Below, piece by piece: positions 7,514 through 34,729 of a stretch of 37,203 nt of DNA; positions within the stretch are counted from its first letter, which is position 1; each line of letters opens with the position of its first letter. Position numbers and translations under genes: made by a program. Below the pieces are notes generated by a model that was given only the letters and a program-made list of their open reading frames with translations, had not been told where the DNA came from and searched no databases. Source of the stretch: an uncultured virus (IMG/VR IMGVR_UViG_3300008120_000124) (taxonomy: Duplodnaviria; Heunggongvirae; Uroviricota; Caudoviricetes); IMG/VR virus record IMGVR_UViG_3300008120_000124; one strand, given 5' to 3'.

Positions 7514-8462
7514 ACTGGAGTGTTTTTTTGATCAATTTCTTGATCTGTTTGAAAGTCTTGTTTACGCCAAACTTTTTTTGAAAGTCGGAGATGTCCTTTT
7601 CTCTGGGGAGAGAAACTCATTTACATTTTATTCTATATGACAGTTTCATAGAGTAATCAATACCCGCAGAGTCACTGTCTAAAAAAATTATTATATGCTT
7701 AAATCTTTTCTTAAGGCCAACGATGAAAGGCTTTATTTCTGAATAACTTTTATCAGAGGTCCCATATCCTTCTCCGTTAAAGCAAACAGCGTTAAACCCA
7801 TGTTGTCTTAAGACCATTATGTCCTTGATAGAAGATGTTATAAAAAGAACTGTTCCCTTCTGTGGAAGTTGGAATAGTCCCCCTATGTCTTTAGTATTAG
7901 CATTCCCTCCCCACTTCTTGGACTTGTCCCCACTTAAAGGGCGATAGATTTTGATATTTCCTGATGGAAACTTGTAAGCAAAAATTGGATTGCCCTTAGT
8001 TGAACGTGCCCAATACTCTTCATTTCTATAGATATTCTTAACAAAGAAACTATATTTAGCTACGATGTTTTTGGGTATCTTGTATTTGTTTCAGTAATAC
8101 ATTCCCTCTTCTAAAGGTGAAGAAGTGAACGAATACTGTACGTCTTCTTTAGGACGAATCTCTACTGCACCGTCTTTCATTAACGGTATATCAGCTATCA
8201 TTTTAGATAGAGCTTGCTCGTAATTTAAATTGAATTTGGCTTTAACAAAGTCTATAACGGAGTACATCTTCGCTATACCAAAATCATTAAAGTAGAGTGT
8301 TTCTCTCTCTGAATAGAAGAATGCTGCTGTTGGATTCTTGTCCTCTCGTAATGGGGATTTGTATAGTTTGCCAAGAACTATCTTTTGCCCCATGTAGTAT
8401 TCAAACGCTGCCTCTTGATTTACTGAGGTTTTTCAATCAGCAGTGTAGTAGATTGCCTTCAT
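7494..8462 (-). CDS. DNA primase (TOPRIM), 322 aa, three TGA=Trp
   Basis: ATG at 8462, with TGAs at 8433, 8091 and 7617. Motifs: SPLREDKNPT, YY[W], KIYRP, ITSSIKDIM, IIFLDSDSAG, KDISDF. It ends LPF-TAA. The KDISD motif lies beyond the third TGA. Confidence 0.9.
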
Positions 8463-17526: not shown

Positions 17527-19407
17527 TTACTTTTCCCACTGCGAAGATACGTGAGCTTCTGCAGGGACTGTTAAATGATTCAGGAATTTCTGCGACGATT
17601 GTAATCCGATCTTCTCAACGAGTTTAGCAATAGTGTTTGCTTTGTCTTTCTCACATTCTATTACTACCTCATCATGTACGAATAACACCAGATTAAACGG
17701 TATTTTTTTAGACTTCTCTCTGAGTTCTATACAAGTGGCTTTTGCTATGTCAGCAGCGGTAGCTTGGACAGGCAAGTTTTGTGACCATCTTTGTATTTTA
17801 GAATCCCAAGTTTTATATGCTGATGCAATAGTAGGATGAGGATCCCAACCCATTGCTTTAAAGTAGTTATAATGTTTCTTAGCTTCTAAGTATTCATTAT
17901 AAAACGGTATATAACTTCTTCTTTTTGATACTTCATTACACACAACATATCCTCTTTCCCTTGTGAGATTGCCCATCTCTATAAAGTAAGGATTAAGTTT
18001 TGGGAAAGCAGTATAAACTTTATTTAATAGTTCCTTTCCTTTCTGTAAAGTAACTCCAGCACCTTCTGATACTTTCTTAGCTCCGGCACCAAAAGCAATT
18101 GCGAAGTTAATAGTCTTTGCTAACTGTCTTTCTTCAGATCCTTTAGTTAGATTAGGATTGTCAAAAGCTAGTTTAGCAGTCTCTAAATGGTAATCACCAT
18201 TGTTTATAAAGATGTTAATAAAGTTCTCGTCATTAGACTTATCAGCAAGTATCCTTGCTTCTATATTAGAGAAGTCTGCACCTACAAAGGTGTTACCTTC
18301 TTCAGCTTGAAATGCTGATCGGTATATAGATCCTCGTTTTATATTCTGGCAATTAGGGTTAGTAGAAGAAGTTCTTCCAGTTCTCATAATTTGCATATAA
18401 GAAGAGTGAACTCTTTGAGAAGTTGGGTTGACGTGCCTTAAAAACTTTTCACCATAGGTAGATGATTCCTTTTGGGAAAGCTTATAGTCAAGATAAGTCT
18501 TCAGAATACCAGCCTTAGCTGTTTGCTTCTTTAAGACTTCACGAGATACAGACTCCTTTATCTCACCTGTTTTCTTGTCTATAATCGACACGTCAACACC
18601 AAGCTCTTTGAGTACAGGTAAAACCTGTTTGTGGGAGTTTCAGTTTAGTTGTTGATACTCCTCCAGTTTCTTTCGCAATTCTTCGGTTTGTTGTAGTGTG
18701 TTGCGATAATTCTCTAACCACTGTTTTTGGTTGAGATATACACCACTCAATTCCATATCAGCAAGAACTTTCACGAAGTTGAACTCTAGCTCTGCTGTTG
18801 ACTCAAGCTCATTTTTCTCAAGCTGAATCTTCTGTTTCTCATACAAGAGATATGCAACCGAAACGTCAAGAGCTCCATAATAGAGCTGCTCTAACTCAAA
18901 CGGTTTATCTCCTATACTAGAAAAAGAACTCCTTATCTTTTTGGTAACTGCTGGAATAAATAAGTTACCTTGATTGGAGTAGTAATGATACCCTGTGTAG
19001 CGTCTAGCGGTTTGCTCTAGGGTAAAATGTCCCTTCTCCTCATCCATCCCACACTCCAGTATTTGTGCTGCAAGCATGGTATCGAATAGATCTTCAAGCT
19101 CAATCCCATAGTTAGTCTTTATAACTTGGTAGTCGAACTTAATATTATGACCTATGATCTTTTTCTTGGATAATTCTTTGAGGAGTTTAGTGGGGTCCGC
19201 TTTCCTTGTGTCTATAATGTACTGAACTTCTTTGTTACCAAACTGCAGCATGACAATTCTTCTATCAAAGATATTATCAAAATCTCCAGTTACCTCTGTA
19301 TCTAAAGCTATTATGTCTCAGGACTTGATCTCTTTGGTGAGTTCTTTACCTGACGTAGGTTGTATCTGTCCGTGTTGGACTCGAAACATAGATTGTTGTA
19401 TATCCAT
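17527..19407 (-). CDS. polA: Family A DNA polymerase with 3'-5' exonuclease, about 626 aa, two TGA=Trp
   Basis: TGA 19318 precedes ExoI IALDTE. ExoII GHNIKFD and ExoIII YGALD are present. QLN[TGA 18640]NSHKQV matches the N(W/L)xSxxQ thumb motif. It also has TGRTSSTNPN, motif A ADFSNIEARI, motif B RQLAKTINFAIAFG and motif C VHDE. The start is 19407 or 19389. Confidence 0.93.
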
Positions 19408-23330: not shown

Positions 23331-24616
23331 CTACAGTATTGTTTCTGTCAACTTCTTTGCCCGGCCAAATGCTGCGATTGTAGCGATCGTCATGCCTTCT
23401 GAATACACAAAAGGAGCCCAGACTTTATCCGGGTAGGTTCCCTTGAAGTATTCATACAGCGATTTGGCTTCTTCTTCCTTCGTGAAGGGCAGGGTCTGGA
23501 TGATTTCTTCTATCCTTCCCACTCGAGTAAAGCTTTCGTCGAAGTCTTCAGGAACATTGTTGGTACAAAATACCATTGACACCCTCTCCATCTGATCGGA
23601 GCCGCTCAGGAAGTTCTTGAGTATTGCCATCACTTCTGTGGACAGAGGGTAGAACTCATCCACAAAGATAACCAGCGACTTTTCTGAGGCTGTGAGCATC
23701 TCTACAGATTTGAGAAATCCACTTGTCTTGAGGTGCTGCAGATCGCTGCCGGAAAGAAGCGCTACACATACTCCTTGAGACGAACATTCATGCATGGATT
23801 GTAGCTTCTTGCCTCTCGACCAACCAACTTACCTTGATACGCCAGCTTGAGGAATTCCGGTGGAATTGTGTTTATCTTTTGCGTAGAAGCGGTTAAACCT
23901 CCGTAGTCGTTCAGGCGAAAAGGATTCATGACGTTGTTCGCCTTAGGCCTTTGCAGAGTGATCTTAGTGAGATTGTTCGTGAGAGACCTGGTTTGCGAGA
24001 GCAGATCAAATTGGCAATCAGCGTCGCATTCTTTCTTCGCGTAGTAAAGCACGGATGTTACTATCGGAAGGGTATCATCCAGCATATACGGCATATACTC
24101 TGTCTCCAGATTAGCCACATAAGCTTTCGACGCGTAATTTATTCCGATACGTAGATAAAACTCCTCCACCCGTTCGTTGATGACTTTGTAGAGCAGGACA
24201 TACCAGAACGAATTGTTGTCGTAAGAGGTGGGATCACCATCGACACGATACACGTACTGGATTTCATACTCAAACTCTCGGTACTTGTCCAAAAGCTGTA
24301 GCAACGGAACACTCGTGACATATTTACTCAGATCAATACTGGTAAACATTTCTTGATTTCCGTTAGAGAGCCCTCTGATAGCATCTGGAATTTCCTTCAT
24401 CTTGCTGGCAGAATTAGAAATCGAATCAATGATACCAGCGATTGTCGGTAATTGCCGATTGATGTTGGAGGCGACTTTCTGGACATTGTCCTTGATTTCC
24501 TCCATTACCGCTTGATTTTGTTGAATCACGTCATCTTCCCTCATGTAGTTTTTGTAGCCTACATAGAAAAGTCCGATGAGCGGGGCTGCGAATAGCAGTA
24601 AGAACAGTAATAACAT
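23331..24616 (-). pseudogene. Membrane-anchored AAA+ ATPase-like gene split into two overlapping frames and lacking Walker A
   Basis: 23331..23795 has Walker B (LVIFVDE), sensor 1 (FCTNN) and an Arg finger (FTRVGRI). 23762..24616 has an N-terminal TM helix. I saw no GxxGxGK(S/T) in either ORF. Confidence 0.5.
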
Positions 24617-25765: not shown

Positions 25766-26418
25766 AACCTGATTTCATTTACCCCGAACAGATCTTCGAG
25801 TTGGTTGGCGATAAAGTAGTTGAAGCCATTCTCCATCCTCGGAAGTATGATAGCTCTGTTTGTACCCTGCCCATAGGAGACATCTTTCACTTCAGAATCG
25901 TGCGTGTCTTTGAGTTTCTGGATAAGGTCGGCCATCCTGAGAGGGATTGGAGCGCTTCTGGGATTCATCAGTTTTCCTCTTTCGTCAATAACCAGACGTA
26001 CTTTCTGGCTCTCGATGAGAACGTACAGCATATTCTCTTTTCCGCCAGACGAAATAGGTACACCAGCCAGGTATGCTCTGGGATGGACCTGTATATCATT
26101 GGCGAAAATGAACTGCCCGTCTTTGTTCTGGGTTATTTGACCCGTGAGACAGATGTTCTCGTGTATGGTAAAATTGGGGTATTCGGACATTTCTTCTTTT
26201 ATCGCGCTTGCTTGCTGACCGATGACAATTCTTTGGATCTGGTCAAGAAATACATTCGCAAACTCCGGGCGTTCTATTGGGCGCTTCTCAGGCACAAGCT
26301 TTAGTTTCGCTTGAGGAACCTGATTTTTTGATAGCGTCAAAAGAGCCGCACTGGGTACGTAATACTTTTGACCGTTTATCATTACCGGTGGATATTCGAT
26401 AGAAGGAAGGTGAACCAT
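25762..26418 (-). CDS. Hypothetical protein
   Basis: 218-aa ATG ORF. Confidence 0.75.
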   Translation of the reverse strand: MVHLPSIEYPPVMINGQKYYVPSAALLTLSKNQVPQAKLKLVPEKRPIERPEFANVFLDQIQRIVIGQQASAIKEEMSEYPNFTIHENICLTGQITQNKDGQFIFANDIQVHPRAYLAGVPISSGGKENMLYVLIESQKVRLVIDERGKLMNPRSAPIPLRMADLIQKLKDTHDSEVKDVSYGQGTNRAIILPRMENGFNYFIANQLEDLFGVNEIRL

Positions 26419-26499: not shown

Positions 26500-27543
26500 T
26501 TACAGCTGAGTGGTCTCAGCGATTTCAGCATCCACTGTTGTTTCACGAGGATCAACGGTCATTGCTTGAAGAGCGTTGACGGTGGCTTCGAGAAGGTCGT
26601 TTTTCAAGTTATCGGCTTCTGCTGCCAGATCTCTTGCTGCAGTACTGATCTTGCCGACCTTAGTAAGAGTATCGGCAAGGGTATTTGCAGGGAAGCTGAC
26701 GTGGCCGGGAGCAACAGTTGCAGATACTTGCAGGGAATCAGCAGCAGCGTCATTCACAGGCAGCGGCATTTGTTCGATTTCCTCCACTTCGGATACGGGT
26801 ACTTCTACTTCGGTGGTTGCCGAAATGGCACCTTCTGCAATCCGATCGTTCAGGACTTCCACGACTTCAGCGGGATCAACAGGTACATCCTGCTGAACCT
26901 CCATGTTGAGGTTCAGACCCATCACGCCAATAGCGACATCGTCTTGAGACTTGGCGTTGAGCATGGTGATCACCTCATCCAGTTCTGTCTGGAGCGCAGG
27001 GAAAGTTGGTGTGCCGGTAACATTGAGTTGGACGAGCTTCTCGAGGATCTGCGCCTCTTGGACAGCGCGGATGTTGTTGCCGAAGTTCTCACCGTCACGG
27101 TTCTTCAGCGCGGTGATGATCTCCTTTTCTCGAGGAGTTTGCTCATCCTCCGGCGTAAGAATCGCCAAGACGATCTCATCAGGGGTGATAGTTGTAGTTG
27201 CGCCGAGTCCAAAGTCAGCGTCAGTCATTGTTGGGATAATGCCATTGATAAATGCCATTTCTGAAAGAAAGTTTTGGTGTGAAGAAAAGAATATTTTTCC
27301 TCCGGGTACATTGTTGTACCTTTTAGCGCACTGATTGTCCGCTAAACACATATAAACGTAATCGTACTTACATTTAAAGTGCTCGGAAAAGATGTTTGTA
27401 GCTGGGATTAGAGAAAAGAGTTTGTTTTTGGGTTTAGAATGAGTTAAAACTATTAGAGTTCCATCCCGAATTCTGAATCCGGGCCTGGGTTTATCTTCGG
27501 GATTAAATGCCCCGAAATAGGTATGTAGATCAATAATCATCAT
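26500..27543 (-). CDS. Hypothetical protein with acidic, Ala/Val-rich C-terminus
   Basis: ORF 26500..27615, with a probable start at MMIIDLH (27543) overlapping the end of the VWA gene. Confidence 0.7.
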   Translation of the reverse strand: MMIIDLHTYFGAFNPEDKPRPGFRIRDGTLIVLTHSKPKNKLFSLIPATNIFSEHFKCKYDYVYMCLADNQCAKRYNNVPGGKIFFSSHQNFLSEMAFINGIIPTMTDADFGLGATTTITPDEIVLAILTPEDEQTPREKEIITALKNRDGENFGNNIRAVQEAQILEKLVQLNVTGTPTFPALQTELDEVITMLNAKSQDDVAIGVMGLNLNMEVQQDVPVDPAEVVEVLNDRIAEGAISATTEVEVPVSEVEEIEQMPLPVNDAAADSLQVSATVAPGHVSFPANTLADTLTKVGKISTAARDLAAEADNLKNDLLEATVNALQAMTVDPRETTVDAEIAETTQL

Positions 27544-28684
27544 CTTCGTCTGGATCCAGTACATCAACAGTAATGTACTCACCACCGCTGCTCTCACAAA
27601 GAGATTTAAGGTCATAGTTTGCTAGACCTAAGCAGTAGCAGTGAATAGTCACTGGCATTTTTCTTGGGGACACGTAATCTTGACCATCGTTGATTATTAA
27701 AACGTTAGTCTCTGGAGATAGGGTAATGCCATCAACCACGCCTGATTTTATGGAGGAACTTAACTCACTTAGAATTGAATCCAAATCAGTAGTACCACCA
27801 CAACCAGTTCTAAAGGCATCTTTAAAGAACTCGACTGACTTAGAGTCGTGCACTTCAAATAAAGTATCCCGAGTCTCCTCGAACGGTGCAACCAACAAAC
27901 GTACGTTTCCTTTAAGGACTTCGTCGAACATTGCATTCAAAATGCTAAGCACTTTTTCAACAACATAAGCGACTGACATTGAGCCTGAGTCGTCTATAAG
28001 GACGATTAGGTCTCTCTTGCATTTACTTATTTTCATCGGAAGCTTTACTCTAAGCGTCTTGTCGATCAAATTTAAGAAAAATAGATCGTCCTCTAACGCA
28101 AAGTCTTCGTCAGTTATATAGTCAATGTCTTTATCTTTTTTATACTTTCGCTTTTTATACTTTACTTTAGGCTTGCCTTCTATAAGATCACTATTTACAG
28201 AACCCTTAATAAAATCAAGGAACTTAAAGTTATCCACGATTTTGGGGATATCTGAAAAATAGCTTTTAGGTCTACCTACATTAGCTCTGTTGCCTTCAAA
28301 GAATCTGCCAAGAGGAGCTCCACCGGATTTTCCACCCGGATTGTCTTCGCCCTCTTGCTTATCAAATCCATCTATTTCTTCAGAGACTTTATTAGATTTC
28401 ATTTTTACTTTATGCTGATTAGCGGTATTAGAAGCAATATATTTAAGAGCAAATTTCGCTTTCTTATCAAAAGTCATGCCATTGTTTTTAAGCATTGGCA
28501 GTAAGTCAGCGAGAATTTCTTTGCTTTTTTTGTTCCCTTCAAACTTGGTTATAGCTTTTTTGGGATTCTCGAAAACTAAATGGCTCATTACGTCCAAAAA
28601 GTTATCGAATTCTTCCTTTTGAAAATGGTCTATATTGTACTTATTATATAAATCAGCAGCATTTCCACTAAAGGATGGGTGCAT
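27530..28684 (-). CDS. von Willebrand factor A (VWA) domain protein
   Basis: MIDAS motif IDDSGSMS, plus GGTTD and IINDG. It lies next to the MoxR ATPase. Confidence 0.88.
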   Translation of the reverse strand: MHPSFSGNAADLYNKYNIDHFQKEEFDNFLDVMSHLVFENPKKAITKFEGNKKSKEILADLLPMLKNNGMTFDKKAKFALKYIASNTANQHKVKMKSNKVSEEIDGFDKQEGEDNPGGKSGGAPLGRFFEGNRANVGRPKSYFSDIPKIVDNFKFLDFIKGSVNSDLIEGKPKVKYKKRKYKKDKDIDYITDEDFALEDDLFFLNLIDKTLRVKLPMKISKCKRDLIVLIDDSGSMSVAYVVEKVLSILNAMFDEVLKGNVRLLVAPFEETRDTLFEVHDSKSVEFFKDAFRTGCGGTTDLDSILSELSSSIKSGVVDGITLSPETNVLIINDGQDYVSPRKMPVTIHCYCLGLANYDLKSLCESSGGEYITVDVLDPDEDDDY

Positions 28685-29705
28685 TTGGGAGAGTTGTTAA
28701 CTTTTGGGTGAGTCTTTGGGAGATCTGGGATAATCTTTCGCTTGCCAACTCGAGTTGATTTGTGTACTCGCCGGTAAACGGAACGTCTCTGATAGTGGTT
28801 AGCAGCACGTTTGCGGTATTGAATTTCTGGATGGCCTGCATGCAATCGCTTTGCGTTCTCATTGTGCGCTCCATACTCTCTGCTTCAGACAGATTTGTGA
28901 GTATCTTTTGCAGAGTTTCCAGATACGGCATCATTTTCTCCATCTCGACGAATTTAGCGTGGAGATCTGAAGAGATACCGTTGAAGTTCTTCAGATATGC
29001 TGAGTTTCCAAGCTCTTTATAGGCTTGGTAAAATCGTACAGCGCTACGAGGTGACATAAAGCCAGTAGAATTCACGAAAGCAGCAAATGTAGATACCAGC
29101 TTTGCTTGAGCATCAGCTATGCCCATAGAAGCAAACATTCTATCGAATGACTCTGCTTCGTAGTTATTCCATTCGGACTTAACTACGTTGTGAAAGCGGT
29201 CTATAAAAGCTTTTTGTGAATCTGTCTTTGCCCACACGTGTGGGTCTACATTGGTGCAGATAAACAAGCTTTCCATTCTGGATGGTACACACGTAAATCC
29301 GTTACAGTATTGTTTACGCGTAAGGGGATCGCGCATACCGGGAGGAAAATCTTCTGGAAGGTCAAGGCCCTCCTCGAGAACGACTATTTTGAAATTATAC
29401 ATGATATTATTTGTTATGTAGGTCTTTATGCCTGTCTCTCTGTACGCCTTAGCGTCTGCGTAACCAATAAAATGGTCACTAGAAGACTCTGATGAACAGG
29501 CGTGAAGGAAAACTTCTGTATGATAGAATTCCTCACCTTTGAGTATTTTTATTGCCTCTTCTATTAGACCTGATTTAGCGTGACCGCCAAGACCGTATAG
29601 AATACAGTTCTTGTGGTTAACCAAAGACACAGAAACAGCTTCAACTGTCTCCGGTACATTTGGGTAACGCTCTATAAGAGCACTGATTAGTTCGTCTACT
29701 GACAT
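28668..29705 (-). CDS. MoxR/RavA-like AAA+ ATPase
   Basis: ILYGLGGHAKS (Walker A variant), VVLEE (Walker B variant), CTN, AFIDRF and SPRS motifs. Confidence 0.85.
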   Translation of the reverse strand: MSVDELISALIERYPNVPETVEAVSVSLVNHKNCILYGLGGHAKSGLIEEAIKILKGEEFYHTEVFLHACSSESSSDHFIGYADAKAYRETGIKTYITNNIMYNFKIVVLEEGLDLPEDFPPGMRDPLTRKQYCNGFTCVPSRMESLFICTNVDPHVWAKTDSQKAFIDRFHNVVKSEWNNYEAESFDRMFASMGIADAQAKLVSTFAAFVNSTGFMSPRSAVRFYQAYKELGNSAYLKNFNGISSDLHAKFVEMEKMMPYLETLQKILTNLSEAESMERTMRTQSDCMQAIQKFNTANVLLTTIRDVPFTGEYTNQLELASERLSQISQRLTQKLTTLPNAPIL

Positions 29706-30233: not shown

Positions 30234-30545
30234 TTATAACCTTACTTTTTCGGCAGGTTTGAGCTTTCTGCTGACAGATGCTTCTGCCCTTGGAATTGTT
30301 TTGGGCTCCACAACTTCTTCCTGAACAGGGATTACAGATTCCACAAGTGGAGGAACTGTTTTTTCCAGAGAATCCAGTGCTTCAGCTGGAATTTCGGTGT
30401 TCTCTTTTGATTTGGGTTCTGTCCGCATAATGAGGACTGCCAGAGTTATAACCATGCAAAATGCTATGGCGCTGCTGGCTGATGTTTTAGGTTCTTTCGT
30501 AACCGTTTTTTGCACCACAGGGGGTTGCCATTTTTGTATTGACAT
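30234..30545 (-). CDS. Membrane anchor plus Pro/Glu-rich linker, probably the N-terminal part of the GH73 enzyme
   Basis: One TM helix followed by a low-complexity linker. The GH73 ORF is in its -1 frame. Confidence 0.6.
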   Translation of the reverse strand: MSIQKWQPPVVQKTVTKEPKTSASSAIAFCMVITLAVLIMRTEPKSKENTEIPAEALDSLEKTVPPLVESVIPVQEEVVEPKTIPRAEASVSRKLKPAEKVRL

Positions 30546-30646: not shown

Positions 30647-30952
30647 CTAATTTTCATCGGGCTGTTTACCGTTCTTGGACCATGTGTTTTGCGCTCTTTC
30701 GCGCATTTTCTTGAGTTCTTGATACTCGTCAAAGAGAATTTTGAACTGTTCATAGGCGTTCGGGTAGTCGCGTTCGGGGAGCTCAAGTAGTGAAAGAACT
30801 TTGTCTCTTACCCGTTGCATTGCATCGGTAAACGTCGGTTCCGGAAGAGCTTTGCTTTTCTTTGATAGCATTGCTGATATGAGTATCGCAATTACTACCG
30901 CGCCGATAGAAAGAATCATGAATTCTTCCTCAGTGAGATTTATTTCTTGCAT
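30647..30952 (-). CDS. Small membrane-anchored protein
   Basis: ATG ORF with an N-terminal TM helix. Confidence 0.7.
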   Translation of the reverse strand: MQEINLTEEEFMILSIGAVVIAILISAMLSKKSKALPEPTFTDAMQRVRDKVLSLLELPERDYPNAYEQFKILFDEYQELKKMRERAQNTWSKNGKQPDEN

Positions 30953-31101
30953 CTTCTTAGAATTTTGTTAAAGACGTGAGAAAATACGTGCTGGTAGTTA
31001 CTGTAAAGTACAATTACAAACCAAGCAATTCCAACTGCAGTCACTATAGCATCTGCGTAGATAGCAAAGTACTGCTCTTTAGTTATGGAAATTTTATCCA
31101 T
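30940..31101 (-). CDS. Small membrane protein (53 aa, below the ORF-track cutoff)
   Basis: MDKISITKEQYFAIYADAIVTAVGIAWFVIVLY... It shares the leader TTAACAAAATTCTAAG with the next gene. Confidence 0.55.
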   Translation of the reverse strand: MDKISITKEQYFAIYADAIVTAVGIAWFVIVLYSNYQHVFSHVFNKILRRCKK

Positions 31102-31136
31102 TGGCTTAGAATTTTGTTAAAAAAGTTGACAAAAAA

Positions 31137-31168
31137 CTTGCTTTTTGTATTTTAATTTTGTATCTTTG
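31137..31168 (+). promoter_or_regulatory. Bacteroidota sigma-A-type promoter (-33/-7)
   Basis: CTTG (31137-31140), a 20-nt spacer, then TATCTTTG (31161-31168). This matches the (T)TTG-N19-21-TAnnTTTG consensus. Confidence 0.75.
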
Positions 31169-31171
31169 CGC

Positions 31172-31545
31172 CTGTATTACTAGGACGTTGGAAATCCTAG
31201 TTCACCCCTACATCACCCTTCGGTAAGGTCAAGAGGGGGGTTAGAAGTCGGATTACCTCTGAATTGAGGGTTTTCTCCGATAGATACGAAACTAAACTAC
31301 ATACAGCCTACAGTGAGTTACAATTAGCTTGGGTATGACCCATGAAGCCAACCAGGTACGTGTCGTAAGGAAACTTACTAATCGTGGCGTTGTTGCTCTA
31401 ACGATAAAGAGTATTACGATTGTAACGAGGTTTTCGTTGCACTGCTGTAGATGTACCCCGGACAAGGAGGATCAAGTTGTAGTTGTGAAAGAAGATAAGG
31501 CTTACCCTTAAGAGTCCCTGAAAGTGGGACAGGGGATACCTATAT
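31172..31545 (+). ncRNA. Candidate large (~370 nt) structured non-coding RNA, antisense to all flanking genes
   Basis: It starts right after the promoter and has no credible ORF. Helices: ACTAGGA/TCCTAGT, CCCCT/AGGGG, TCGGA/TCCGA with CCTC/GAGG, AACTACA(31295)/TGTAGTT(31478), TACAGC/GCTGTA, GTTACAATT/GATTGTAAC, GTAAG-GAAA-CTTAC and GTCCC/GGGAC. Confidence 0.65.
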
Positions 31546-31731
31546 CTAGAGGGGAAGTTTGTTAAAGATGAAGGATGTAATTGGAGCCGAAATAAATTTG
31601 ACAACTAAAACCAACATAATAACAAAGAAAACATCATTGTCTCTCATAGAAGAATGCCAAATGAAATGTGCAAGCATTCCAATTGGAATCATTCCTATTA
31701 TAACGGCAATTAAAAATTTGAGTTTTTTCAT
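31546..31731 (-). CDS. Small two-TM membrane protein
   Basis: 61-aa hydrophobic ORF. Confidence 0.6.
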   Translation of the reverse strand: MKKLKFLIAVIIGMIPIGMLAHFIWHSSMRDNDVFFVIMLVLVVKFISAPITSFIFNKLPL

Positions 31732-31923
31732 GCCACAATGAGTTTTTCTGTTTGAAACAATTCTGCGAAAGGGTTAAAGAACCCGCAAAGAAATCCGAGT
31801 GCGATTGCAATAATCATTGTTTTCTTTTTTTAATGTGTGAAACAAATTTGTGGATGCCAACTGCAATTATGATTGCGGTAATAAGAATCCACAGGTGAAA
31901 AAGAAATGTTGTAAACTCGCTTT

Positions 31924-32124
31924 TCATCGGTCAAACTTTTTAGAAAGATAATCTAATAAAGCGAGGACTATTTTGTGTGATGTAAAACCTGCAAAGAGAA
32001 GACAAATACCAAAAACGCAAAAGTTTCTGCTTTGAAGAATGTACATACACAAAAGAGTTATACTTCCAGTTAGAAATGCCCAGAAGCAAATTACTCCTAA
32101 GGAAGCTATGCAATATTTATTCAT
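31924..32124 (-). CDS. Small two-TM membrane protein
   Basis: 66-aa hydrophobic ORF with ATGA coupling. Confidence 0.6.
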   Translation of the reverse strand: MNKYCIASLGVICFWAFLTGSITLLCMYILQSRNFCVFGICLLFAGFTSHKIVLALLDYLSKKFDR

Positions 32125-32399
32125 ACGTATTTACTGTAGTCAAAGTTAGGGTCAATAAAATTTTTGTAGATCATAAGCCCAATGCGTTTTACGATTCTTA
32201 TAGCTAGCATTACTTTAATGACAACTAGTAAGTCGTAAAGAAGTGGGTAAGTTGTTGTGCGAAATTGAAAACCATATTCTTCAAATAGAAATTCAAAGAA
32301 ACTTCCTTCAATTATGCACATTGTGCCGTAAAATAAGGCGGCCAACAAAAGTCCCAAAATCATTACAATTTTGAGAATGAAATCAGCAAATTTTTCCAT
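32121..32399 (-). CDS. Small two-TM membrane protein
   Basis: 92-aa hydrophobic ORF. Confidence 0.65.
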   Translation of the reverse strand: MEKFADFILKIVMILGLLLAALFYGTMCIIEGSFFEFLFEEYGFQFRTTTYPLLYDLLVVIKVMLAIRIVKRIGLMIYKNFIDPNFDYSKYV

Positions 32400-32556
32400 C
32401 GTTCCTTAAAAATGTACCCAATCCGAAAAGGAAAAGGTAGGTGAACAATTGTTCTGCTGTAAAGTTGTCAAAAGCATGCTTAATAGCAGCACCGACAATT
32501 GCAGCGGTAAAAAGATGAAAGGTGTTAAACCTCTTCACATAAAGGAGTTTCAGCAT

Positions 32557-32904
32557 TCAGAAAATTTTATTTTGTTTACAAAACTCTACTGCTTCCTGTA
32601 AAGAGGCAGCGTAGAAAGATTTCGGTGAGTTTGAATTACTTGGCCGTATAGTGTCTCCAACTACAGTATAAAAGTTTGGCGCATTGTGTTCAGAAATTGA
32701 CATATATTTTTGATATATCATTTCCGGCGTTTGCAAAACTTTATATTCTCTAGCAAATTGACGTATTATAAAAAGCGTTGAAGATGCATCAGAATCGTTT
32801 AAAAACGAGACGAGTGAGTATAGTACGCCAATGCTAAAATAAAAGCTCTGAGAGGCCTTTAAATCAGCGACAAGTACATTCTTTTGGAAGTTCATGTTGT
32901 TCAA
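32557..32904 (-). CDS. Hypothetical protein
   Basis: 115-aa ORF with a TGA stop. Confidence 0.6.
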   Translation of the reverse strand: MNNMNFQKNVLVADLKASQSFYFSIGVLYSLVSFLNDSDASSTLFIIRQFAREYKVLQTPEMIYQKYMSISEHNAPNFYTVVGDTIRPSNSNSPKSFYAASLQEAVEFCKQNKIF

Positions 32905-32964
32905 AAGATTAAGGGAGACAACATTACATCATCCCCCTTATGAAAACAATTCAAACTGGTTTTT

Positions 32965-33570
32965 TTATCTTTCCCATATAGGGCTGAAGATATTCCAAAG
33001 AAGCACCGCGTTTTCGGATGTACCCATTGCATAAACAGATCTTCCAATGCAGTCTATTGCTTGTAGAGAAAACTCTCCGTAGCGATAAACTAAACGCACT
33101 GTAGTTTCGGGATGTGATTGATGGGAGTCATCCCAATAACATTCTCCCCATTCAAATTGATAGAAAATGGAGGCAGAACGCGGGTGTTCAATACGTATCA
33201 CAATATTCGGATCGGTGTAGACTGCAGATATTCCAATGGAATCTGAGTCTTCTTCTTTACTGTGCATTACAAAAACCCCATTTTTTAAGTCTAGGGAAAA
33301 GTTTGCAGGCCAGTGTACCCAATCAACATCTTGGATTGTCAGGGAGTCTGTAATAAATTGGCCGATTTGGCGTAAATCGCCGTAGGCTTGTGCTGTATAA
33401 GAATGAGCGATAACAGTATCACCCATTTTTTCAGCGGTGTGGATAGTGTATTCTTCTCCCAAAGAATTCTGGGAATAAGAAGATACACCGATTTGGATTG
33501 TTGACTTATCGGACTGTGCCGAGACCAGAAGGGGGAAAAATCCCATCAAGATAAAGAAAAACAGTTTCAT
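32965..33570 (-). CDS. Secreted/periplasmic hypothetical protein
   Basis: Probable start MKLFFFILMGFFPLLVSAQ, a Bacteroidota-style signal peptide ending in SA-Q. Confidence 0.7.
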   Translation of the reverse strand: MKLFFFILMGFFPLLVSAQSDKSTIQIGVSSYSQNSLGEEYTIHTAEKMGDTVIAHSYTAQAYGDLRQIGQFITDSLTIQDVDWVHWPANFSLDLKNGVFVMHSKEEDSDSIGISAVYTDPNIVIRIEHPRSASIFYQFEWGECYWDDSHQSHPETTVRLVYRYGEFSLQAIDCIGRSVYAMGTSENAVLLWNIFSPIWER

Positions 33571-33775
33571 TTTTTGCCTGTTTATAAATGATTGAATCTT
33601 TCTTACAAAGATATATGTATTCACTATCGAATACATAATAATCAGTGTCAGAAATTATTGTGTCAGGGATTAAAGTTGTATTAGTTTTTCTTGGGATAGA
33701 GTTTATTATAAGAGCGATGCCCGCTATACCAATTGCGAACATCATCAAAGCCGTGAATTTATCTATTGCTTTCAT
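33506..33775 (-). CDS. Small membrane-anchored protein
   Basis: The ATG directly follows the tRNA-like element, and there is an N-terminal TM helix. Confidence 0.6.
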   Translation of the reverse strand: MKAIDKFTALMMFAIGIAGIALIINSIPRKTNTTLIPDTIISDTDYYVFDSEYIYLCKKDSIIYKQAKNETVFLYLDGIFPPSGLGTVR

Positions 33776-33776
33776 G

Positions 33777-33860
33777 CCCCGGTAATGGGAGTCGAACCCA
33801 CAATTTGTTTTGTAAAGCGTGCGAACACTGAGTTACATTACAAACCACCTGTGTACCGGG
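33777..33860 (-). ncRNA. tRNA-like element with intact acceptor stem and T-arm but non-canonical D/anticodon region
   Basis: 7-bp acceptor CCCGGTA/TACCGGG and T-arm GTGGG-TTCGACT-CCCAT. The central long stem (TTTGT/ACAAA plus TGTAA/TTACA) encloses CTCA-GTG-TTCG-CAC-GCT. There is no encoded CCA. Confidence 0.6.
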
Positions 33861-34117
33861 AAAATGCCCCCACAATCTTACGACTACAAGGGCAAACTAA
33901 AACCTTACATCAGCATCCGCTGTTTTTCAACAGTGGTATGACAATAAAACAGCTTCAATGAAAATACTCCCCTATCTTACGACAGAAGAGTAGTATCTAA
34001 ACCTTTCGTTATGCTAGATCCTGATGTGCCCTCTCTTTAGAAGACATTACCAGAATTTCTTAATTCAAAAGAAGCTCCCCCACTTTACTTTTAAAGCGAA
34101 GGAGCAGCCAACCATCG

Positions 34118-34273
34118 TCAGTCTTTTGTAATTCCTCGTGCCTTCCAATAGTCAGTTTGAGGGTTAGTGCAGCTCATTTTAGGAGCACAGGAGCAGAGGA
34201 ATACAGTGACGACAACCGCCAGAGCGAGCAGAAAAAGTTTGATCGCACGGTTGAGTTCATTACTCATTTTCAT
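34118..34273 (-). CDS. Small lipoprotein (51 aa, below the ORF-track cutoff)
   Basis: MKMSNELNRAIKLFLLALAVVVTVFLCSCAPK... (lipobox LCSC). Its TGA stop is followed by a hairpin and U-tract. Confidence 0.65.
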   Translation of the reverse strand: MKMSNELNRAIKLFLLALAVVVTVFLCSCAPKMSCTNPQTDYWKARGITKD

Positions 34274-34603: not shown

Positions 34604-34729
34604 GTTTTTAAGTTAAGCGAGTTTACGTTGTTACGTCCTCACTGCTTTACGAGGGCTTTGAACCTCTTAACTTAAAAAAAGAACCCTCCCTCTTTTGGGA
34701 AGATCCTTCGTTCTCACTATTAAACCTTT

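Follow-up and report, generated by a model that had tools for sequence, protein, structure and literature searches.

An uncatalogued family of structured non-coding RNAs in Bacteroidota phages, carried mostly by crAss-like phages

A stretch of DNA of 37,203 nucleotides (nt) from an uncultured virus of the Caudoviricetes (IMG/VR record IMGVR_UViG_3300008120_000124), hereafter the window, meaning the whole stretch that was analysed, carries at positions 31174-31547 of its plus strand an element that is almost certainly a member of a real family of structured non-coding RNAs. The members of this family are uncatalogued structured non-coding RNAs of Bacteroidota phages, most of which are crAss-like, and the family is very probably missing from the curated catalogues as a whole. 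By sequence comparison it is a new RNA family with solid comparative support. The first hypothesis of an earlier note made from the window alone, namely a plus-strand phage non-coding RNA that is large, novel and preceded by a host-type promoter, is supported by covariation, by G-U pairs that can form on the plus strand only, and by a promoter box found across the family.

Few RNAs are both large and intricately folded with base pairs that evolution has preserved, and every class described before has led to new biology. At least 94 distinct versions of the present RNA exist, and sixteen of its helices are supported. Its carriers include crAss-like phages, whose gene functions and infection programmes remain poorly understood, and an unannotated copy lies in the published genome of a human-gut crAss-like phage (cr118_1). 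The RNA could serve as a handle on host takeover by these phages, and as a clean object for structure determination, ligand screens and pull-downs.

The 5' four-way-junction domain and its core

The window copy belongs to the new family, as helices P1 to P4 and the core were detected in it by a covariance model built from other members. This model, R2, was rebuilt from 29 matches with the window copy outside the seed. On the window it gave one match, at 31175-31293 (45.7 bits, E value 3.5e-10), which is the sole match in 37 kb and makes the RNA single-copy there. At E values up to 1e-5, R2 recovered all 92 distinct family loci. Helices P1 and P2 could not be aligned across subgroups by MAFFT, and the model was seeded from 7 similar sequences with a hand-written structure and iterated. 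The P1 register in the R2 alignment is off by a few bases; the coordinates below, including those of P1, are from the MAFFT/RNAalifold fold.

31174..31547, plus strand: whole structured RNA, about 374 nt; 5' end placed from the promoter and P1, 3' end from the last conserved helix
31174..31287, plus strand: 5' four-way-junction domain, 114 nt, matched by model R2
31174-31178/31283-31287, plus strand: helix P1
31179-31185/31195-31201, plus strand: helix P2, a hairpin
31204-31208/31237-31241, plus strand: helix P3, with inner hairpin 31215-31217/31227-31229
31247-31252/31276-31281, plus strand: helix P4, with inner hairpin 31256-31259/31266-31269
31242..31282, plus strand: core, UAGAAGUCGGAUU and GUUUUCUCCGAUA on either side of a hairpin, from exact-pattern scans and the consensus
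31288..31291, plus strand: conserved GAAA directly after P1; family consensus gAAAAG, one A of which occurs in at least 97% of the 75 distinct rows

The core, in which AGAAGUCGGAUU and UUUUCUCCGAU flank a hairpin, is identical in every copy found by exact pattern, and the junction and internal-loop bases are constant across these copies. When the subgroups are anchored on the core, all of them share the same order, namely P1, P2, the junction AUC, P3 with its inner hairpin, CAGAA, P4 and GAAA. P1 pairs the first bases behind the promoter with the 5-7 bases that come right after CCGAUA, and P4 joins GUCGGA to UCCGAU, enclosing an internal loop and the inner hairpin.

Pairing in this domain was compared with that in shuffled alignments. 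Among 36 sequences, 97.6% of cells pair, as compared to 68.6% in the shuffles, and the covariation score is 0.543 as compared to 0.117. The set of 92 sequences (75 distinct rows) gave 97.1% pairing cells against 65.1%, 555 cells changed on both sides against 157.5, and a score of 0.691 against 0.147. These observed values were reached by 0 of 500 shuffles of the 92-sequence set, and slid controls scored at most 0.112. Compensatory changes occur in 20 of the 26 pairs of the domain. The six P4 pairs were fixed by the search pattern. The cr118_1 copy, which was found by the model and without the pattern, has GUCGGG/CCCGAU in P4, a compensated change, and GUGUC in place of UUUUC.

Two details of the earlier note concern this domain. 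The run of six G residues to which it drew attention is present (31235-31240), but it forms the 3' side of helix P3, where it is paired, and relatives do not preserve it as a run of G, having UUGGGU, AUCUGC, GGUGGC and other sequences there. Mutually exclusive helices, taken there as a hint of switching, were not confirmed. One alternative pairing, of UUUUC with GAAA(A), was considered and rejected: cr118_1, with GUGUC and AAAAAUUG at these places, does not preserve it, and it is unable to covary in the pattern-selected members.

The full-length fold

The full-length RNA was tested in a plain MAFFT alignment of six relatives (the window copy, L027, L129, L106, L034 and L047) folded with RNAalifold. 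The fold has 85 pairs in 16 helices. It is satisfied in 94.6% of cells, as compared to 77.0% in shuffles, and 45 of the 85 pairs changed on both sides, as compared to 19.7. The covariation score was 0.504 against 0.178; none of 500 shuffles matched it, and slid controls did not exceed 0.106. The note had claimed at least eight helices, a count that the sixteen found here, with their compensating mutations, exceed. The 7 sequences of a second subgroup likewise fold into a body of several helices, with 70 pairs, of which 23 show compensatory changes. The features downstream of the 5' domain are as follows.

31295..31484, plus strand: central multi-helix domain, closed by 31295-31301/31478-31484
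31308-31314/31444-31450 and 31317-31325/31418-31426, plus strand: long-range helices of the central domain
31328-31334/31338-31344, plus strand: hairpin of the central domain
31347-31349/31355-31357 and 31358-31361/31387-31390, plus strand: helices of the central domain
31365..31378, plus strand: GUAAG-GAAA-CUUAC tetraloop hairpin, a variable peripheral insertion
31394-31399/31408-31413, plus strand: hairpin of the central domain with loop AACGAUAA
31439-31444, plus strand: GCACUG motif
31456-31459/31466-31470, plus strand: variable hairpin of the central domain
31493..31547, plus strand: 3' hairpin domain, with 31506-31509/31531-31534 and 31514-31518/31526-31530
31493-31500/31539-31547, plus strand: tentative outer helix of the 3' domain, seen only in a 4-sequence fold

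Two of the three long-range helices proposed earlier, 31295-31301/31478-31484 and 31317-31325/31418-31426, were recovered exactly; in the third the 3' strand was as proposed, but the 5' strand lies 6 nt further on, at 31308-31314. In order along the RNA, 5 of 7, 3 of 7 and 8 of 9 pairs of these helices changed on both sides. The GAAA tetraloop hairpin, also described earlier, is real but belongs to the variable parts of the RNA: it is present in three of the six relatives (the window copy, L027 and L129), while L106 has another hairpin and L034 and L047 have none. By eye, the GCACUG motif and an end motif in the 3' domain, AGGGG-N7-8-UAUAUC, are common to most subgroups.

Promoter, strand and coding potential

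The RNA lies in a gap of the open reading frame (ORF) list, directly behind a promoter-like sequence.

31102-31545: gap between short minus-strand ORFs, from the ORF list
31138-31168, plus strand: Bacteroidota-type promoter, with the -33 element TTG at 31138-31140, a 20-nt spacer and the -7 box TATCTTTG at 31161-31168
31329..31511, plus strand: mechanical ORF of 60 codons (60 amino acids) with a TTG start, lying within the RNA and not a gene; disrupted in 4 of 5 homologues

We call the promoter Bacteroidota-type after the Bacteroides -33/-7 consensus. It directly abuts helix P1, and its position would put the 5' end of the RNA at about 31172-31175. The pattern TTG-N20-TAnnTTTG has this single match in the 37-kb window when both strands are scanned. 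By itself the match is not significant, as 0.79 matches are expected and at least one occurs in 58 of 100 shuffles. Across the family, 22 of 36 members have TAnnTTTG in the 60 nt before the RNA, a span in which 0.058 matches would be expected, and mostly 1-7 nt ahead of the start of the covariance model. The upkeep of the -7 box agrees with the near-consensus host-type promoter that had been proposed. In a mosaic relative (L003/L010), conservation begins at 31137, next to the -33 element.

The RNA strand is the plus strand, because the G-U pairs are possible on that strand only (the P4 G-U pair in 75 of 75 distinct rows, and others) and the promoter box points in the same direction. By eye, no -7 box was seen on the minus strand at 31102-31175.

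The earlier judgement that no convincing ORF follows the promoter also held. In 4 of 5 homologues the frame at 31329-31511 is interrupted by stops and by indels that break it, and in the fifth it is open but encodes an unrelated peptide after shifting indels, while the RNA pairs covary.

Searches of known families and published lists

The window was scanned with the 4227 models of Rfam 15, a set that includes ROOL, GOLLD, HEARO, OLE, raiA, group I and II introns, RNase P, 6S, riboswitches and ribozymes. At gathering thresholds nothing matched the RNA; the only match in the whole window was a twister-P3 ribozyme at 34610-34673. At E values up to 10, a scan of 30900-31800 gave three chance matches, none of them on 31174-31547. 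ARAGORN found no tRNA or tmRNA gene in the window. The Rfam scan that had been suggested, ROOL and GOLLD included, thus matched no family on the RNA, and the results from Rfam 15 and ARAGORN agree with the earlier remark that hallmarks of group I and II introns, tmRNA, RNase P and tRNA are lacking. In 16 diverse members scanned at E values up to 1, Rfam reported only three tRNAs, beside L029 and L032.

BLASTN of 31100-31600 against 50,697 phage records gave no match. A full-text search of the published literature found no description of the RNA, and term look-up in PMC8375218 and PMC7886860 found no passage on non-coding RNA. A bulk list of 10,006 candidate viral RNAs has been published (Fremin et al. 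2023, PMC10690425). The core motif is absent from the six supplementary files of that paper that were searched, and an unnamed candidate of the list could be the same RNA, which calls for caution on novelty. A likeness of the core to 16S rRNA amounted to a chance match of 9-11 bases and was dropped.

Relatives and distribution

The window corresponds to IMG/VR record G001, which is 61 kb long with an estimated completeness of 61%. The region is present in four near-identical contigs, one of which, L003/L010, is a mosaic. Between L003/L010 and the window, the RNA is about 98% identical and the next 1.8 kb 85-95% identical, while identity drops to 47% in the adjacent MoxR-like protein and the DNA to the left of 31137 shows no relationship, a contrast that indicates horizontal spread. 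The RNA and five small hydrophobic ORFs form a travelling cassette (31110-32933) that is 85-98% identical between the window and L003/L010, two phages whose other genes are far apart in sequence.

The MoxR-like protein was used as a synteny anchor, and the loci fetched with it were searched by nhmmer. Two distant syntenic homologues, L011 (E value 3e-13) and L013 (E value 1e-11), aligned across nearly the whole element, and the alignment showed an unchanged core, AGAAGTCGGATT and TTTTCTCCGAT flanking a hairpin. Scans with the exact core found 37 stretches in IMG/VR, 12 in contigs of a one-genome-per-species set and 75 in metagenome contigs, the last including L129 among the window-type variants and the more distant L106. 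Two of the 12 (L058 and L059) are chance matches inside long ORFs with weak model scores. The total, including the window, is 125 stretches and 94 distinct sequences.

When 13 whole named records were searched with R2, the RNA was found in one, crAssphage cr118_1 (NC_055872.1, 66588-66704, 53 bits), which makes its distribution patchy. This copy (L204, 1501-1617) is unannotated and lies in a 622-nt gap between divergent genes; the AGGGGAU end motif follows about 150 nt past the match. The phage belongs to the Suoliviridae and comes, according to its record, from human feces. R2 was negative on cr60_1, cr52_1, crAss001, phi14:2, FpV4, Fpv2, FPSV-D25, ProJPt-Bp1, DAC15, Kolpuevirus Bc03, cr10_1 and cr272_1, and it found the RNA in none of the 9 isolated phages searched; given the loose first filter of this search, such negatives are weak evidence.

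Nine contigs (L056, L057, L060-L065 and L067) belong to one assembly labelled 'uncultured Bacteroidetes' (RUG14866) and have one RNA copy each, in which P1 and P2 covary; this bin seems to be made up of related phage contigs. Copies of the RNA near contig ends were noticed, which would be explained by assembly breaks at a sequence common to co-occurring phages.

Genomic context and carrier genomes

The window encodes a DnaB-like helicase, further helicases, PolA in two ORFs, endolysins, and a MoxR-VWA pair. The RNA stands alone there, with one flanking gene convergent and the other divergent, and likewise in L075 and L070. Genes for packaging and lysis recur near the RNA in the 12 other contexts: the terminase large subunit lies about 2-4.5 kb away in five by PHROG (L069, L070, L071, L078 and L079) and in L080 by likeness, and endolysin, amidase or holin genes are near in five (L073-L076 and L078), as they are in the window.

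The carrier terminases are of the crAss-like type (phrog_6681), and that of G006 is 50-59% identical to terminases of named Suoliviridae. G024 is a 50-kb carrier phage with a different terminase (phrog_38), and only 2 of its 83 mechanical ORFs match any of 7 other carrier genomes, each in one genome only. BLASTP of the mechanical ORFs of 8 genomes found no protein common to the carrier phages. At 27530-29705 on the minus strand of the window, a MoxR-like AAA+ ATPase, whose match to PF20030 is under the curated cut-off, precedes a protein with weak likeness to VWA. The ATPase was considered as a partner of the RNA and rejected, as it occurs in only 5 of 25 carrier records; TBLASTN of this neighbour gave no match.

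Possible modes of action

Our tentative preference is for an RNA that is stand-alone, trans-acting and host-directed, a reading to which we would give somewhat less than an even chance. In such a scheme, the host RNA polymerase would transcribe the RNA as a unit of its own from the host-type promoter, and the core would bind a host-supplied component that is alike in all hosts, whether a conserved protein, a host RNA or a small molecule, and not a dedicated phage protein. The gene would be an accessory cassette, exchanged horizontally among phages and tending to settle at the junction of the lysis and packaging modules. The target of the core is probably host-supplied and highly conserved, because the carriers have no protein in common, yet 23 bases of the core are the same in phages with proteins that are 30% identical or not related at all. 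In the same way, the RNA probably addresses something common to Bacteroidota hosts, because unrelated phages carry it without a shared protein. The stand-alone, trans-acting mode is favoured because the window type keeps the whole fold between genes of opposite orientation.

Several observations weigh against this reading and the structural case beneath it. The folding energy is no better than that of shuffled sequences (z of -1.19 on the plus strand and -1.65 on the minus strand), so that thermodynamics would not by itself have singled out the region. The full-length structure was derived from the same six sequences in which it was scored, three of them near-identical, and the 36- and 92-sequence alignments were fitted to the covariance model. 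The core is not absolutely invariant, given the variant in cr118_1, and its identity elsewhere is partly a product of the exact-pattern search. Two RNA-labelled sequencing runs (0.06 share of words) covered only 30669-30753, an unrelated 85 nt, and showed zero coverage on the RNA, which is uninformative either way. A same-strand ORF comes after the RNA in 10 of the 12 other contexts (L069, L071, L072, L073, L074, L076, L077, L078, L079 and L080), an arrangement compatible with a leader and with a stand-alone gene alike. The window copy is followed by no terminator-like site, as none was found in 30800-31900. The negative result on shared proteins comes from BLASTP of mechanical ORFs in 8 genomes only.

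The strongest alternative is a cis-acting leader of late operons, a serious possibility that we nevertheless consider unlikely on balance. The 5' junction would then be a sensor of the riboswitch kind, or a polymerase-modifying element, and would set read-through from the promoter into terminase, structural or lysis genes or, in the window type, into antisense of small membrane-protein genes. The co-oriented ORFs in 10 of 12 contexts, the nearby terminase genes in 5 of 12 (and L080) and the lysis genes near the RNA in 5 of 12 and in the window all suit a leader, as do the abutment of promoter and P1, the lack of a terminator-like site behind the window copy, and junction and internal-loop bases that are unchanged in the pattern-found copies, as in aptamers. 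However, the fold is still kept in the window, its five full-length relatives, L070 and L075, none of which has a same-strand gene behind the RNA. The genes behind the RNA are unrelated between contexts. Moreover, the structure takes up the whole 300-370 nt, with a conserved 3' domain, far beyond the usual expression platform. The count of 0 terminator-like sites in 30800-31900 also leaves the window copy with no recognisable platform, and L047 has a hairpin and U7 after the RNA.

More speculative, and in our view doubtful, is a further reading, in which the 5' junction would be the active centre of a new functional RNA class, either a ligand sensor or a ribozyme. Such a class might be traded horizontally by unrelated Bacteroidota phages, including human-gut crAss-like ones, and might read or rewire a universal host component, for example by timing late-gene expression and lysis by host state.

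An RNA whose function lies in the RNA alone, either a new ribozyme or an RNA-only multimer of the 'ornate' kind such as ROOL and GOLLD, seems improbable. It would account for the large multi-domain fold with constant junction and internal-loop bases in the pattern-found copies, and it sits well with the finding of no shared protein partner; tRNA genes beside 2 of 16 members and a twister-P3 ribozyme 3 kb away also point in its direction. Against it, no ribozyme, ROOL or GOLLD model matches the RNA, and no self-complementary loop was noticed.

We regard it as very unlikely that the locus works by antisense or transcription interference, with a strong plus-strand promoter firing against the minus-strand operon so as to split it or to silence the convergent membrane-protein genes. 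The window copy is indeed convergent with 31546-31731 (minus strand) with no terminator-like site, and minus-strand transcription probably crosses the RNA gene, as no -7 box was seen on that strand at 31102-31175. This layout is found in the window type only, whereas 10 of the 12 other contexts are co-oriented. Interference would not require a conserved fold of 16 helices, and the best complementarity of the RNA to the rest of the window (26.3 bits) is within the range of shuffles (mean 24.8, maximum 28.2).

The notion of a primer RNA for a PolA-dependent origin, like ColE1 RNA II, which the earlier note had also raised, is scarcely credible: the phage does encode PolA-like ORFs and a DnaB-like helicase, and the window RNA has the G6 run, but that run is a paired strand of P3 and varies freely from relative to relative, the cumulative GC skew is lowest at 25797 and highest at 7612 and shows no extremum at 31.2-31.5 kb, and the RNA lies near lysis and packaging genes and not in the replication module. 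The weakest proposals are a part in a stop-codon recoding switch, for which no supporting point was found and which is opposed by the lack of tRNA genes in the window and by the few ORFs lengthened when TAG is read as Q (23 ORFs of at least 200 amino acids; TAG only), and a protein-coding gene, for which the 60-codon TTG frame exists but is disrupted in 4 of 5 homologues, in contrast to the covarying RNA pairs; both can be set aside with near certainty.

Comparison with known RNAs

ROOL and GOLLD are large ornate RNAs of phages and prophages, which sometimes have tRNA genes beside them. The present RNA resembles them in being large, multi-helical and phage-borne, with no known protein partner or function, and in having tRNA genes beside 2 of the 16 loci examined. 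Unlike them, it matches no Rfam model and is smaller (about 300-370 nt); its 5' four-way junction with the AGAAGUCGGAUU / UUUUCUCCGAU core and its Bacteroidota hosts also set it apart. ROOL and GOLLD are reported to form RNA-only complexes (bioRxiv 10.1101/2024.12.08.627333).

The crAss-like phage phi14:2 produces two abundant long non-coding RNAs of unknown function, which the accessible part of the report describes as intergenic between g004 and g006 and as expressed early and throughout infection (bioRxiv 10.1101/2020.03.07.982082). They provide a precedent for a stand-alone RNA, being likewise non-coding, of unknown function and from a crAss-like phage of a Bacteroidota host. They differ in that no structure is reported for them there, and they are non-homologous to our RNA at the sensitivity used. 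As candidate relatives they were rejected: with filters off, the best R2 match in the first 12 kb of the phi14:2 record had 8.6 bits (E value 0.95), and the whole record was also negative. ROOL, GOLLD and the phi14:2 RNAs are the nearest in kind, with homology to neither group at the sensitivity used.

SAM-I is a riboswitch aptamer built on a four-way junction. Our RNA shares with riboswitches of this type a domain of about 100-130 nt at the 5' end of the transcript, covarying helices, junction and internal-loop bases that are constant in the pattern-found copies, and a co-oriented gene that often follows. It differs in that no riboswitch model matches, a further 200-260 nt are conserved, and the downstream genes are unrelated, with none in the window type.

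The phi29 pRNA acts on the packaging motor and the HK022 put RNA on RNA polymerase. Like both, the present RNA is a structured phage RNA with a strong promoter; it resembles the pRNA in lying beside packaging genes in 5-6 of 12 contexts, and put in being placed directly after its promoter. No similarity in sequence or fold links it to either, it is several times larger than put, and its carriers have no portal or terminase family common to all members. With ColE1 RNA II it shares a structured length of several hundred nt and a phage-encoded PolA; unlike RNA II, it has a G-rich segment that is not conserved, no origin signal and a place in a different genomic module.

Non-coding RNA arrays of UG27 reverse transcriptases are known from gut phages (PMC9226505; bioRxiv 10.64898/2026.09.22.753630). 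They were considered and discarded, as the window has no reverse transcriptase or such Pfam match and the RNA is single-copy.

Neighbouring genes and other observations

The two genes that flank the RNA are short.

30940..31101, minus strand: divergent ORF of 53 amino acids on the promoter side, from the ORF list; no Pfam family
31546..31731, minus strand: convergent hydrophobic ORF of 61 amino acids, whose stop codon overlaps the last RNA helix by 2 nt; no Pfam family

A motif that reads CTTAGAATTTTGTTAAA on the plus strand and TTTAACAAAATTCTAAG on the minus strand is repeated at 30956-30972 and 31105-31121, and in weaker form near 31557-31570. The two strong copies lie immediately upstream of minus-strand start codons at 30952 and 31101, and the motif may serve the small-gene operon as a common leader or promoter element.

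The tRNA genes beside family members lie within a few hundred bases of the RNA, at 1208-1279 in L029 and at 1272-1343 and 1358-1429 in L032. The type-P3 twister ribozyme of the window (RF03154, minus strand) scored 49.8 bits, against a gathering threshold of 39.9, and lies among small minus-strand ORFs. The DNA polymerase I-like gene occupies two minus-strand ORFs, 17527-18591 and 18640-19251, which are 48 nt apart and are not joined when TAG is read as Q. Near-identical public records are longer than the window by 25 nt at 30244/30245 and by 106 nt at 23795/23796. The extra 25 nt falls near the 3' end of the ORF at 30234-30545 (minus strand). These differences could reflect strain variation, a small insertion or the assembly. 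Finally, the cumulative AT skew at 31200-34200 runs opposite to that in the rest of the window, which likely stems from small hydrophobic proteins with T-rich codons on the minus strand and not from a change of coding strand.

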